Positions 50,441 to 56,356 of a DNA stretch of 64,000 nucleotides are shown piece after piece. Both the position numbers and the translations under genes were made by a program. Every line of letters starts with the position of its first letter. Positions within the stretch are counted from its first letter, which is position 1. The notes beneath the pieces are model-generated. The model was not told the origin of the DNA. It worked only from the letters and a program-made list of their open reading frames with translations, and searched no databases. The stretch comes from Candidatus Heimdallarchaeota archaeon (GTDB lineage: Archaea > Asgardarchaeota > Heimdallarchaeia > Heimdallarchaeales > Heimdallarchaeaceae): positions 44,399 to 108,398 of the forward strand of contig JAEOTE010000090.1 in the NCBI GenBank assembly GCA_016839945.1, written 5' to 3'.

Positions 50441-51211
50441 TTACAAATTCATATTCTCAGCAATGGGGAAGTATTTTGGGAAAATCAATTTTGCGAAGTT
50501 TTGATACATTTCCACACTATAATCTTTTTGTTCAATTAAATCCTCTAGTTTAACTATTTCAGATTCATTGTATCCTTTCATATTGGGGAATTGGTTAAAA
50601 TCACCATAATCAAGAATCTTGCAGAAGATTTCACCTAATTGATCTAACTCAAGATAAGATTCTATAATTATGTGGATATGGTGAGTAAGTTTTTCTATTT
50701 GTTCTTCAGCTTTTACTGAATTAGAAATTCTAATCACTGACAAAATAGCTGCTCGCCTTGTTATGTAATCTTCTGCATAAACTACGTTTGTGAGAGGGTA
50801 CAATACATCAGCATCATCCAGATATCCTATAGCTCTTATTGCAGCATATTGTAGATCATAACCGCTTTCTTCTAGTACCTTAACAAGATAAGGCTTAGAC
50901 GAATAATCCTTCAATTTTCCTAGAACTTCTAAAGAGGATAATTTGATTGCTAAAGAACTCCTTTCAATTAAATCGTGCAGGTATTCTAACACTTTCTCCT
51001 TTGTTTCAGGAAAATGCTCTATAAGATAAATCAATGTCAAAGATGCTGCATTTCTAACATTCCAATCCGCATCTTCTATTAGAGGAAGAATTTTCTTAAC
51101 ATTCCTTGTTTTAGGTTTTTTCTGTAGAAAAAGCGCAAAGTGTGCTCTATCTAATGGTTCATCACTTTTCAGTTTTTTTCCAATAAGCATCCCTTTAAAG
51201 AAATCCATCAT
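50441..51211 (-). CDS. HEAT-repeat (PBS-lyase-like) protein
   Basis: DADWNVRNAA, IKLSSLEVLG, LQYAAIRAIG.L.D, TRRAAI repeats. Confidence 0.85.
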   Translation of the reverse strand: MMDFFKGMLIGKKLKSDEPLDRAHFALFLQKKPKTRNVKKILPLIEDADWNVRNAASLTLIYLIEHFPETKEKVLEYLHDLIERSSLAIKLSSLEVLGKLKDYSSKPYLVKVLEESGYDLQYAAIRAIGYLDDADVLYPLTNVVYAEDYITRRAAILSVIRISNSVKAEEQIEKLTHHIHIIIESYLELDQLGEIFCKILDYGDFNQFPNMKGYNESEIVKLEDLIEQKDYSVEMYQNFAKLIFPKYFPIAENMNL

Positions 51212-52782
51212 AGCTCATATACCCCCTCTTTAATTAGATATGCTAAAGCTCCCCTCTGGGGTTGTGTAACTTTACGTAAGTATGTGTAATCAATCTTACT
51301 TACATCGATTTTTTCATCCTTCTCATCGTCTAAATCAAATTTGTATGCGTCCTTCTTCTTTGTAACTTGTACAGCTCTTGTTGCGATTGGTAAATTATAA
51401 GGAGATAAAGGTTGATACTTTGTTTTATGAACTGCAAAGAGTGTTGCTACATGTATGCCACCAAGTTTCTTGAATATCACAACATCAGCAAAAGCAGGCA
51501 GAATTGTTCGAAAATCATCTCTATAAAGAGACATGTGATTGTGGAGGATAACTAGTTGATCAATCCCAATTCCATAATCATTAACTTCAAAGACATATAC
51601 TTTCTTTTCTCCCACCTTAACATAACCTTTTGAGTTTATCCTTGGTTTATCATCAAGGAGTTGTCCGAAAGTTGAGTATTTTTTCCTATATACTTTTCGT
51701 GTATATTCTTCTATTTGTCTCCAGCCATAGGCATAAACAGACCAAATATCTGTCCATCTACTTTTTGAAGAATGCCAGGTTTCAACAACACTTTCAGAAT
51801 GTACATTCTTATTCACTGCTAGTAAATCTTTAACTTCATCCCATGAGAATTCTTCTAACAGTTCATAATCCGACTTGTAGCTAAAAAGTTTATTAAACAA
51901 TTCCTCCTCATTTTCTAGTTTGCTTAGGAGTCGTTCTATTATAGCAATAGTAAATTCACCAATTGGTGGTGCTAAAAAGGCTTTCAAATCGTTTGGATAT
52001 TGTATTCTTTTATCTTCATCTCTCTTAGGTAGTTTATATTCATCTTTCTCAAGTAAATAATCTAAGGCTTTCATTTGTATATAGTGTGCAAAACCTTCAT
52101 CGATTATTTCATGAAGGTGCTTTTTTCTTGCAAGTTTAGCCCTTTCCCCTATCAGATTTATGGCCTCTATTGAGAAATTATTGAACAAAGTATATTTTCT
52201 TGCATCTTCAGGAGGAGTGTAAAAATCTTCTACGTTTGCTTCAGTAAATAAACGTATCACACCGATTAGATCTTGGAAGTATTGCCAAGCCCAGGCATGT
52301 TTGTTGTCAGATGTTTGATTTAATTTGAAGACATTATTTACCATCAACTCCTTTAAAATCACATCAATTTGATATAGTTTTGAAAGAGTTCTTGCAGAGT
52401 TTGATTCAGTCTTTTCATTCATGTAAGCATGAGCAAAAGCATGAATTAGCATAATTCTTAGTGTAAGTTCTTGTTCTTTTGTCAATTCATAAGATGGTAC
52501 TGAGAGATAAATCAATGTAGGTAATGAATTATATACGGTTTCTTTTCCTGTTGGAAGAAAATCATTTATTCTAGCTGATCTTAGGTTTGTAATTTGTTCA
52601 GCTGTCAGTATTGCCTGAGGGGTTCCAGTTATTTCAACTACACGGTTAACTGAAACATGGAGTTCAGGATTTATAAAGATTAGAACACGATAATTTTCTG
52701 GATTAGAACCCACTAAAACTCTAAAATCTGCCTTAGCTTTTTGGTAGACTTCAACAATTTCTTCTAGTTCAGCTTTAAGCAT
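51208..52782 (-). CDS. Zincin-fold/SpoVR-like protein with degenerate HExxH
   Basis: IHAFAHAY plus downstream IIDEGFAHY; overlaps both neighbours. Confidence 0.6.
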   Translation of the reverse strand: MLKAELEEIVEVYQKAKADFRVLVGSNPENYRVLIFINPELHVSVNRVVEITGTPQAILTAEQITNLRSARINDFLPTGKETVYNSLPTLIYLSVPSYELTKEQELTLRIMLIHAFAHAYMNEKTESNSARTLSKLYQIDVILKELMVNNVFKLNQTSDNKHAWAWQYFQDLIGVIRLFTEANVEDFYTPPEDARKYTLFNNFSIEAINLIGERAKLARKKHLHEIIDEGFAHYIQMKALDYLLEKDEYKLPKRDEDKRIQYPNDLKAFLAPPIGEFTIAIIERLLSKLENEEELFNKLFSYKSDYELLEEFSWDEVKDLLAVNKNVHSESVVETWHSSKSRWTDIWSVYAYGWRQIEEYTRKVYRKKYSTFGQLLDDKPRINSKGYVKVGEKKVYVFEVNDYGIGIDQLVILHNHMSLYRDDFRTILPAFADVVIFKKLGGIHVATLFAVHKTKYQPLSPYNLPIATRAVQVTKKKDAYKFDLDDEKDEKIDVSKIDYTYLRKVTQPQRGALAYLIKEGVYEL

Positions 52783-54160
52783 AAAGTATACTCTCCTTTA
52801 GAATTTGTTCACCTAATTTCTTGATTTGAGCTGGATCAATTAAAATTGGTCTAGTAATACCTTTCAGCATTTGTTTTGTATGAATGTATAACTCTTTGTT
52901 GCGGAGTGACTCAGTTCCCATCAAGAAGTAAGATACGTTCCATTTCCTTGAGCGATCTTTTTTCAAGCTTGTAAAAATAGCGTTGAGTTGAACTAAACAC
53001 TCTATTGTTTCTGGTTTTGTTTTGGTTTGTATTTCAGAGAAATATCTTGTTAATGCATCACTTTTTCGATAATTAAATGGAAGAGTTGGAACATTAGGCA
53101 TACCATCTGTTACTATGGTGAATTGAACATCTATGTCTTTGTCTGTATGTTGTTTTTTTGCATGTTCAATTGCAGCTTGAACGGCTTGAACCATGTATGT
53201 CTTTCCTTTAGCTTCTGCAGATAACAGGAGATGTTCCATTTTTTTATCATCATCTACAACTGTTGTATTTTTTCTGATAGGTACAACTGCAAGTTTGAAC
53301 ATATCATGACGCTTTCTTTTTCTTCTGTTTATCAGTTTAAAATAGTAATAAAGACTTAAACTTGTTAATAGAGCTCCATCTAATCTAGACATTTTGCCCT
53401 CAAAAACAGTTTTTCTCATTGATTGACTCATATCGACAATGAGATAGACTAAAGATCGTCTGTCTTTCTTTACTCTTACTATATCTTCTTGCTTAACTGA
53501 GGATGGAGGTATGGTTTGAGAGCCAAGAATTGCGCTTTTGTAGGTTTCTTTTAAACGGATAGTTCCACTTGGACGTTTTTGGACTTCATCAATGGGTGCA
53601 ACAGAAATTTGTTTCAATAGATATCGACCTAATATTTTCCCAAGTAAATCCATGACACTTTCTCGTGAAATCCTCTTTTTTCTTCCAAATGCATCAGTAA
53701 TTTCTATATCTACTATGTCTTTTAGTTGATTTAATTTATCTGCTAGTTGCTGCAAATCGACAGTGCCTTCGTGTTTTAATTCACGTAATAAATCTTGTAT
53801 ATACTTTAGAATGTCCTCGAGTGTTTGTAGCTCATTACGATTAACTCGTTCTAAAACATCAGGAAGAACATGATCTCCCATAAATCTTAGAAGTTTCAGT
53901 TCATTTACTAAACGTTCTTCTTCTTCAGGAGTAAGATATGTATTCATGATTTTCTGAAGTATATTTTCGATAGCAACAGAGTGTTTTGCTGCAATTGATA
54001 GAACTGCCCCTTCTCGAGAACTTCTACCTAAATGCGGATTTCTCCATAACCGTAAGACTTGAGCAGCATCCTCAAAATCCAATACAAACTCTACATCACC
54101 ATAGTGTTGTAATGGATCAGTGAATTCAGTTTCTGTAATGAAATATATTCTATGAGGCAA
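52775..54160 (-). CDS. vWA-domain protein (Rv0959-like)
   Basis: VYLIVDMSQSM MIDAS, G.T...A, IVTDGMPN; TTG start with GGAGATG RBS. Confidence 0.85.
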   Translation of the reverse strand: MPHRIYFITETEFTDPLQHYGDVEFVLDFEDAAQVLRLWRNPHLGRSSREGAVLSIAAKHSVAIENILQKIMNTYLTPEEEERLVNELKLLRFMGDHVLPDVLERVNRNELQTLEDILKYIQDLLRELKHEGTVDLQQLADKLNQLKDIVDIEITDAFGRKKRISRESVMDLLGKILGRYLLKQISVAPIDEVQKRPSGTIRLKETYKSAILGSQTIPPSSVKQEDIVRVKKDRRSLVYLIVDMSQSMRKTVFEGKMSRLDGALLTSLSLYYYFKLINRRKRKRHDMFKLAVVPIRKNTTVVDDDKKMEHLLLSAEAKGKTYMVQAVQAAIEHAKKQHTDKDIDVQFTIVTDGMPNVPTLPFNYRKSDALTRYFSEIQTKTKPETIECLVQLNAIFTSLKKDRSRKWNVSYFLMGTESLRNKELYIHTKQMLKGITRPILIDPAQIKKLGEQILKESILYA

Positions 54161-55743: not shown

Positions 55744-55759
55744 GGGAGGTACCTCTTTT

Positions 55760-56356
55760 TTATTTATCATTCTCTTCTTCTGAAGGAATTTGAATCTTAA
55801 TTGGTTTTATTTTTTCTAATAATTTTTCTTTTTCCGACCAAGGTTTAACATAACCCATATGAATTATCTGTTTCAACCACTTTAATACATCATGCATTGA
55901 TTCTTCGTTGGATATTTCAAAAAGATTCCAAAGACGATCTGTGAGTCTTATCAGAGATAAGTTCTCGATTAGTTCTCCTCTAGATAATGCTCCTTGAAGC
56001 TCGGAGTTATAAGCACATACAGCTATTGGTAAGTTCTTGGTCTCTTCTGCCCAGACAACCTTTTCCCAAAAATAATTTCTTTCATGTTTAATCATTTCTT
56101 CTTTTGTAGCATCTATCAGATAAAGAAGTGCTTCAAAAGGTAGGAATTGTTTAGGTTTAAATTTAAATTTCTCTGTGTATGGTAATTCTGTTAAGCAACT
56201 ATCTATTATGTATTCTCTTAGAGAAGTATAGGATCGTAACAATAAAACTCGGTTTCTGGTTGTGGGTATATCATTTCCCATAACCAGTATTGTTACTTCC
56301 GGGTAACCTAGCTTTCTTCGAATAGATTGTGAAATATTTTGGATGAAGTTAGTCAT
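55760..56356 (-). CDS. Arf/Arl-like pseudo-GTPase (G motifs degenerate)
   Basis: Amphipathic N-helix plus EVTILVMG; ALLYLIDAT; LPIAVCAYNSEL.GA; L.L..L.DR.W; DVLKWL. Confidence 0.7.
   Translation of the reverse strand: MTNFIQNISQSIRRKLGYPEVTILVMGNDIPTTRNRVLLLRSYTSLREYIIDSCLTELPYTEKFKFKPKQFLPFEALLYLIDATKEEMIKHERNYFWEKVVWAEETKNLPIAVCAYNSELQGALSRGELIENLSLIRLTDRLWNLFEISNEESMHDVLKWLKQIIHMGYVKPWSEKEKLLEKIKPIKIQIPSEEENDK

Follow-up and report, generated by a model that had tools for sequence, protein, structure and literature searches.

The locus described here raises the question of what a compact archaeal operon does that unites an Arf-like protein, an AAA+ ATPase, a von Willebrand factor A (vWA) protein, a peptidase-like protein and a HEAT-repeat protein, and whether this combination has a counterpart among known systems. 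The operon occupies positions 50441-56356 of the window, the stretch of 64,000 nucleotides (nt) of a Candidatus Heimdallarchaeota genome that was analysed as a whole (G+C content 32%), and is comprised of five minus-strand open reading frames (ORFs), all co-oriented and tightly packed. The explanation that we favour, and that we consider probable, is that its core is a very diverged, kinase-less and lineage-specific homologue of the PrkA-YeaH-SpoVR system, accompanied by a HEAT-repeat protein and, in most cases, by a pseudo-Arf protein. In bacteria the PrkA-YeaH-SpoVR trio is widespread and is linked to starvation, osmotic stress and sporulation. The first-pass annotation of this DNA knew of no described system with the present combination, and no paper describing the operon, nor any linking Asgard archaea with SpoVR, was found in the literature. 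The features of the locus are the following.

55760-56356, minus strand: Arf-like pseudo-GTPase, 198 amino acids (aa) (Pfam Arf match and relatives of solved structure)
54196-55743, minus strand: probable PrkA-type AAA+ ATPase in which the C-terminal domain of PrkA was not detected; 515 aa when counted from its likely start (hhalign)
54196-55770, minus strand: longest ORF of the AAA+ gene, 524 aa (ORF list)
52775-54160, minus strand: vWA protein with an intact metal-ion-dependent adhesion site (MIDAS), 461 aa, TTG start (alignment and Pfam VWA_2)
51208-52782, minus strand: SpoVR-like pseudo-zincin as judged from its predicted fold, 524 aa (AlphaFold2 model and fold matches)
50441-51211, minus strand: HEAT-repeat protein, 256 aa (Pfam HEAT_2)
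56357-56420, minus strand: candidate operon promoter, A+T-rich; TTTAAAC/TTTATTA, resembling a TATA box, lies some 25-40 nt before the start of the Arf-like gene (reading of the sequence)

The AAA+ protein carries the first part of the evidence. Its AAA residues are invariant (Walker A GPTGEAKT with K67, Walker B VVNE with N225 and E226, the sensor-1 residue N268, and R284, R293 and R392), and because the catalytic residues are invariant the protein should hydrolyse ATP. Walker A and Walker B are separated by about 155 residues with the near-invariant C92, C123 and C126, and this Cys3(+His) insert represents a putative zinc site. An alignment of the family was compared, using hhalign, with a PrkA alignment composed of YeaG from E. 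coli and of four PrkA genes carried on plasmids. The two matched at 93.9% (E 1.6e-7) over 179 columns, columns 62-274 against 107-302 of PrkA, and the match spans Walker A, the PrkA-specific insert, Walker B, whose aspartate is missing in both families, and sensor 1. Seven ordinary MoxR paralogues of Heimdall genomes served as control: they matched the AAA+ family at 69.6% over only 44 columns around Walker A, and matched PrkA at 0.2%. The C-terminal domain of PrkA (PF06798, the reported kinase part) gave no Pfam match in the AAA+ protein; since the hhalign alignment does not extend beyond residue 302 of PrkA, and since the Heimdall protein, with 515 aa versus about 640 for PrkA, is some 130 residues shorter, this domain is not detectably present. 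The MoxR model AAA_3 (PF07726) matches four other genes of the genome at E <=1e-10 and not the AAA+ gene of the operon. Since ordinary MoxR genes sit elsewhere in the genome, the operon ATPase is an additional, distinct AAA+ protein; its sequence features are not those of an ordinary MoxR, and support its assignment as a PrkA-type ATPase with intact catalytic residues. Among the analogies named in the first-pass annotation, the one with PrkA was upheld.

The ordinary MoxR (AAA_3) genes, at least four in number, are located on contigs C12, C179, C36 and C89 of the genome (G000). In one genus, g3 (loci L013, 6867-8411, and L014, 12007-13551), serine stands in place of each of the three insert cysteines (CP...LCPxC), and outside this site the AAA+ protein is 56-58% identical; there the putative zinc site would have been lost and the rest of the AAA+ protein kept.

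The 524-aa product of the fourth gene, which stands third in the AAA+/vWA series, has no Pfam match in its window form. Its AlphaFold2 model (predicted local distance difference test score, pLDDT, 79.8; predicted template modelling score 0.82) matched two SpoVR clusters of the ESM Atlas with template modelling (TM) scores of 0.55 (query) and 0.59 (target) over 385 residues, spanning query residues 4-516, both sides of this comparison being predicted models. Foldseek of the model against the PDB returned nothing at E <=0.001. An exhaustive VIA-align search placed residues 1-346 on the catalytic domains of zincins (M1, M32, thermolysin and TAF2) with Z from 8.7 to 6, which is in the middling range of this tool, superposing 157-202 residues at a root-mean-square deviation of 3.7-6.6 A. 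The best hhalign alignment with SpoVR is collinear over 342 columns (E 0.0026; the percentages are weighed below) and brings the motifs ExVxNSxP, HAxxxH and (N/D)EGxA into register, with ETVYNSLP on YEIVINSNP, HAFAH on AHACYGH, and DEGFAHY on NEGWATFWHY. Gluzincins (M1 aminopeptidases, M32, thermolysin), and proteins related to them that have lost activity, TAF2 among them, show the corresponding likeness, HAFAH and DEGFA lying at the positions of HExxH and of the third ligand in NEGFA, whereas the C-terminal beta-rich domain of the 524-aa protein is not shared with them. These motifs are not kept within the family: HAFAH of the window reads YALAK, QLLAM or HTLAK in other families, the glutamate of DEGFA is variable as well, and the catalytic glutamate is absent in all members. 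Because the HAxxH-type motif and the ligands are not conserved and the catalytic glutamate is never present, the protein is a pseudo-enzyme. The models support a SpoVR-like, zincin-derived fold without conserved catalytic or metal ligands, in agreement with the SpoVR-like pseudo-zincin that had been proposed.

Canonical SpoVR was found in one of the 301 Asgard genomes searched, G291, which has two copies (L035, 823-3111, minus strand, and L039, 1257-2792, minus strand). One of them is a 762-aa ORF with an interrupted match that looks like an intein insertion, and a SpoVR+LAGLIDADG_3 cluster exists in the Atlas; the contamination of this bin is 6%, and a bacterial origin of its SpoVR is possible. 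Frames of about 1300 aa in other Asgard classes (L036, L037, L038 and L040) matched SpoVR positions 251-330, the NEGWA region, with E values of 1e-5 to 7e-4, and are probably zincin-type proteins that share the NEGWA helix. A search of the window genome with PF04293 gave nothing at E 10. Comparisons by hhalign with the single E. coli proteins YeaG, YeaH and YcgB were uninformative, and a homologue search with YcgB was of no help, as it returned only gammaproteobacterial sequences of at least 75% identity.

The arrangement of the genes agrees with these two assignments. In the PrkA/YeaG-YeaH/YhbH (DUF444, PF04285)-SpoVR/YcgB (PF04293, PF24755) system of bacteria and haloarchaea the gene order is the same as here, and the overlap of the vWA and SpoVR genes, which amounts to 8 nt in the Heimdall operon, is equally long in Thermomicrobium and measures 4 nt in Novosphingobium. 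The AAA+ proteins of the two systems align over Walker A, the long insert, the Walker B motif without aspartate and sensor 1; the third proteins have a common fold, three motifs that follow each other in the same order, and similar sizes (524 aa versus 510 aa for the canonical protein), and both are without the HExxH glutamate. The vWA proteins agree in operon position and in length (461 versus 427 aa for YeaH). The differences are that the Heimdall ATPase is about 130 residues shorter, has no detectable C-terminal kinase domain and carries the putative Cys3 zinc site in its insert, that the N-terminal region of YeaH is not detectably shared with the Heimdall vWA protein, and that the Heimdall module adds the HEAT and pseudo-Arf proteins. 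Homology with the PrkA trio is proposed because a PrkA-type AAA+ protein, a SpoVR fold in third position, the same gene order and the same vWA/SpoVR coupling are found together. The earlier analogy with SpoVR and PrkA-YeaH is directly supported as a probable homology by the hhalign match of the ATPase and the TM scores of the SpoVR-like model; the vWA protein is a candidate member of the YeaH family.

The vWA protein has a full MIDAS, as had been noted from the window sequence: D243-x-S245-x-S247, T321 and D352 are invariant in the 16 vWA sequences, 14 of which match Pfam VWA_2, the match of the window protein being weak. Structure prediction of this protein together with the 524-aa protein, each represented by a 16-row alignment, predicted an interface between them: the interaction prediction score from aligned errors (ipSAE) was 0.90-0.91 in three runs, versus 0.00 for the best of three controls. 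The mark applied to this score is reached by 58 of 80 solved complexes and by 2 of 110 mismatched pairs, counts that are only a rough guide for custom alignments. Contacts agreed between runs to at least 89%, and the pLDDT of both partners was at least 82. The interface on the vWA side comprises residues 1-108 and 157-161 and does not involve the MIDAS domain, so that in the predicted complex the SpoVR-like protein is bound by the N-terminal 160 residues of the vWA protein, whose MIDAS face stays free. Conservation at the interface is only slightly above that of the rest (0.65 vs 0.60 and 0.56 vs 0.52, p ~0.08), which neither supports nor weakens the model. The prediction supports binding of the two proteins, and does not show it.

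Conservation was examined in 16 loci from other genomes, belonging to families f1, f2, f3, f4 and f6 of one Asgard class. The order Arf-like/AAA+/vWA/524-aa/HEAT is the same in these 16 loci of five families, which is far beyond chance, although identity to the window proteins falls to 52-58% for the AAA+ protein, 44-50% for the vWA protein, 30-39% for the 524-aa protein and 23-32% for the HEAT protein. A HEAT homologue directly follows the 524-aa gene in all 16 loci, and the Arf-like gene adjoins the AAA+ gene in 13 of them. In L013 the Arf-like gene is on the opposite strand, two genes off, and in L014, L015 and L016 unrelated ORFs occupy its position. Two distant bins have split clusters: in L031 the vWA/524-aa/HEAT-like block is kept, divergent from the AAA+ gene, and in L032/L034 one contig carries both the block and the AAA+ gene, at a distance of about 45 kb. 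A longer HEAT-like gene takes the HEAT position in these split clusters, and the small ORF that precedes the AAA+ gene in each of them has no likeness to Arf.

Of 41 relatives, 38 have a single copy of the 524-aa protein, and among 301 genomes sampled across the phylum it was found in 50, all in f1-f4 and f6, with none of the 21 genomes of family f5 and no genome of another class possessing it. The AAA+ family is present in 56 of the 83 genomes of the class, with none among 22 genomes of f5, so that the two families display one common phyletic pattern with zero in f5. A profile of 16 sequences of the 524-aa protein found only 20 proteins among 1.84 billion representative proteins, none of them SpoVR, and word-based searches with the AAA+ protein and with the vWA alignment gave 109 and 95 proteins, respectively, all from the Heimdall group, this type of search being unable to reach remoter homologues. 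Near-identical public proteins come from Candidatus Heimdallarchaeaceae metagenome bins, where the AAA+ and vWA proteins are labelled as hypothetical, MoxR-like ATPase or VWA domain-containing protein. The flanking genes are housekeeping genes that differ by family (uvrBC, NUDIX, pyridoxal phosphate (PLP) enzyme, RNA polymerase A', FKBP, ParB_N-like and serine hydroxymethyltransferase (SHMT) genes). Based on the kept order, single copy, housekeeping flanks and shared phyletic pattern, the cluster bears the marks of a vertically inherited functional module with a four-gene core, and not those of a mobile or defence island. The module is near-universal in, and specific to, Heimdallarchaeales and a sister family, which belong to the archaea closest to eukaryotes.

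The remaining two proteins are the Arf-like and the HEAT-repeat protein. The former matches Pfam Arf (PF00025) at E 1.8e-6 (28 bits, with a cut-off of 22.3) over residues 74-163 and profile positions 82-172; its best relative of solved structure is Arl8A (E 6.9e-6), and the Asgard Arf structures 8ouk/8oul follow at E 6-7e-5. Its C-terminal half is homologous to Arf/Arl small GTPases (10.1101/2024.02.28.582541; PMC11914678), from which it differs by the loss of G1, G3 and G4, a shortened switch region and a gene position beside an AAA+ machine; the preprint on Asgard Arf proteins does not discuss gene neighbourhoods or this subgroup (10.1101/2024.02.28.582541). The P-loop reads GNDIPTTR, DxxG is absent, and NKxD is replaced by YNSE, so that all three GTP-binding motifs are missing, as the name pseudo-GTPase given to it implied. 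Because the losses of G1, G3 and G4 are common to all 12 aligned homologues, they are old by the evidence of this alignment, and the protein has persisted with no nucleotide switch. That an Arf-fold protein unable to act as a GTP switch is conserved bears on the pre-eukaryotic uses of the Arf family. The N-terminus of the family f1 proteins, TNFIQNISQSIRRKLG, could form an amphipathic helix as judged from its sequence, and the f6 N-terminus (MFKRQKPPKH...) has no such helix; the amphipathic helix put forward earlier is possible in f1 and is not conserved outside it. The HEAT protein is an ordinary PBS-lyase-type repeat protein (Pfam HEAT_2, E 2e-14).

Several observations weigh against descent from the PrkA trio. 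The PrkA alignment is only five sequences deep; none of the Pfam or NCBIfam models of PrkA, DUF444 and SpoVR is significant on the window proteins, and among the family members AAA_PrkA (PF08298) matches 1 of 22 AAA+ proteins (E 0.0013), DUF444 (PF04285) none of 16 vWA proteins and the SpoVR models PF04293/PF24755 none of 16 of the 524-aa proteins. By hhalign, the vWA alignment matches five YeaH/YhbH sequences at 24% (E 8e-4) in the vWA domain only, which is a generic match, and the 524-aa alignment matches SpoVR at 2.3-11.4%, not significant by sequence. The AlphaFold2 model of the AAA+ protein is weak (pLDDT 69.6, with residues 177-292 below 50), and its VIA-align matches are to generic AAA+ lids (NorQ, Lon, RuvBL and dynein); placement of the protein in an AAA+ clade by structure failed, as the conserved core is poorly modelled. 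The nearest language-model clusters point elsewhere, to archaeal Mg_chelatase/AAA_5/Sigma54_activat proteins for the ATPase (0.98) and to archaeal VWA_2+Rv0959_3rd proteins for the vWA protein (0.94). They favour the principal alternative, a separate chaperone pair made up of a MoxR/ChlI-type AAA+ protein and a vWA protein, like Rv0958/Rv0959, that matures a client or inserts its cofactor, with the zincin-like and HEAT proteins as lineage-specific clients or adaptors and the likeness to the PrkA trio as convergence. Pairs of this type (RavA-ViaA, CbbQ-CbbO, NorQ-NorD, Rv0958-Rv0959) likewise have an AAA+ protein followed by a MIDAS-vWA adaptor, VWA_CoxE matches 4 of the 16 vWA proteins, and the Walker A motif GPTGEAKT resembles the MoxR form, GxxGxAK[ST]. 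The Pfam matches of the ATPase, weak Sigma54_activat/AAA_5 matches in the window protein and AAA_5 in 21, Sigma54_activat in 20 and Mg_chelatase in 12 of the 22 members, go in the same direction. The extent of the alignments speaks for PrkA nevertheless, since the match with MoxR paralogues is limited to the P-loop region and that with PrkA takes in the insert; the Walker spacing is PrkA-like and not MoxR-like, a third gene with a SpoVR-like fold stands in the SpoVR position, which like the insert is a feature of the Heimdall system and not of the MoxR/ChlI pairs, and the genome has its ordinary MoxR genes elsewhere. We thus regard an independent MoxR/ChlI-type pair as unlikely. Foldseek of the AAA+ model against the PDB gave nothing at E <=0.001, profile searches of PDB sequences with the AAA+ and vWA families gave nothing useful, and no function for Rv0958/Rv0959 was found in the literature.

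Two further readings concern the role of the accessory proteins and of the operon as a whole. A membrane or coat-like module, in which an Arf-fold protein with an amphipathic helix and a HEAT protein recruit the AAA-vWA machine and foreshadow eukaryotic Arf/adaptor pairs, would fit the genuine Arf-family membership of the C-terminal half, the possible helix of f1 and the constant presence of the HEAT protein. It seems quite improbable to us, as the loss of all GTP-binding motifs leaves no switch, the N-terminal helix is absent in f6, L014, L015, L016, L031 and L034 have another gene or none where the Arf-like gene would precede the AAA+ gene, the HEAT gene of split clusters stays with the vWA and SpoVR-like genes rather than with the Arf-like one, and the cluster encodes no transmembrane or lipid-binding component. 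AAA+/vWA pairs with peptidase-like partners occur in conflict systems, and a conflict role had been raised earlier beside a stress role; the operon could then be an NTPase-based defence system of the vWA-MoxR ternary kind, its dead peptidase acting as sensor or decoy. PADLOC gave weak matches that fit this idea, to TRIP13 at the AAA+ N-terminus (2.2e-5) and to HEAT-ARM models in the HEAT protein; none of its system models matched, and three of the five proteins were without any match. The module, however, occurs once per genome in nearly all genomes of four families, with 52-58% identity between families, its flanks are uvrBC, RNA polymerase A', FKBP, SHMT and NUDIX genes, and it has neither effector domains nor mobile-element neighbours, all of which makes a conflict system highly improbable.

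If the core is a diverged PrkA-YeaH-SpoVR system, its AAA+ ring may use ATP to remodel a client or control client turnover. The free MIDAS site, together with what is left of the peptide groove in the pseudo-zincin, would capture the client, the HEAT protein would act as a scaffold, and the pseudo-Arf, a later acquisition, would be an adaptor that does not switch. The most likely role, judged from the analogy with the bacterial trio, appears to be a housekeeping one in adaptation to starvation or stress. This mechanism is an analogy with a model that is itself unsolved, the bacterial trio having no established biochemical activity, and this too counts against the reading. In six bacteria the genes of the trio show tight cofitness, with no pathway assigned to them (10.1101/072470). 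PrkA of B. anthracis, an AAA+ protein needed for sporulation and osmotic stress, displayed negligible activity both as a kinase and as a protease (PMC13001217). The kinase-less five-part version of the trio, with its confidently predicted vWA/SpoVR-like contact, would represent a second, independent entry to the biochemistry of this system. It is improbable that the pseudo-Arf pairs with the HEAT protein, independently of nucleotide, as an Arf/solenoid unit which positions the PrkA-type machine at a membrane or other structure in Heimdallarchaeia. Were this the case, the operon would display an early use of the pairing of Arf fold and alpha-solenoid later seen in eukaryotic coats and adaptors, and would be a tractable means of finding out the function of the PrkA-YeaH-SpoVR trio.

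The layout of the operon was re-examined from the ORF list. The five co-oriented genes were seen again with their junctions, a gap of 35 nt between the AAA+ and vWA genes, the overlap of 8 nt between the vWA and 524-aa genes and a 4-nt ATGA overlap in which the HEAT start overlaps the stop of the SpoVR-like gene; the start of the AAA+ gene is the one point to be revised. Its homologues begin about nine residues downstream of the start of the longest ORF in the alignment and GAGGT is located 8 nt upstream of the ATG at 55743, so that this ATG, rather than 55770, is probably the true start, giving a gap of 16 nt to the Arf-like gene in place of an overlap. The vWA gene has GGAG 9 nt before its TTG start and a conserved N-terminus, MPHRI, and the ribosome-binding sites reported before the AAA+ and vWA genes were thereby both located. 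The A+T-rich stretch upstream of the Arf-like gene may contain the operon promoter, a suggestion drawn from the sequence. A scan for sigma-70 promoters was discarded, having found fewer sites than in shuffled sequences with a consensus that is irrelevant to archaea. Contigs (Logan) of two metatranscriptome libraries from relatives, 90-97% identical, touch all five genes, and one of 700 nt bridges the vWA/AAA+ junction; they give a weak hint of expression, as a single transcript is not provable from contigs and carry-over of DNA is possible.

The genes around the cluster differ between families. FKBP-type prolyl isomerase (E 3.3e-14) and ParB_N-like (E 2.7e-6) genes adjoin it in f2 and f3 only (L013, 5356-6789, and the flanks of L017-L020), and were not counted as parts. 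OrfB_IS605/Cas12f-like TnpB genes flank the rearranged cluster of L031 (56-1348 and 14927-15106), and may relate to its rearrangement. In the window, uvrB (657 aa) and uvrC (597 aa) are encoded at 45967-49733 on the minus strand, about 700 nt downstream of the operon and on its strand; they lie next to or near the cluster in each of the four f1 loci that were inspected, none of the loci from other families has them, and they were rejected as parts of the system. Upstream of the operon, at 56449-57915, are the genes of a NUDIX hydrolase (plus strand) and a PLP-dependent enzyme (minus strand), and the NUDIX neighbour recurs in family f1.

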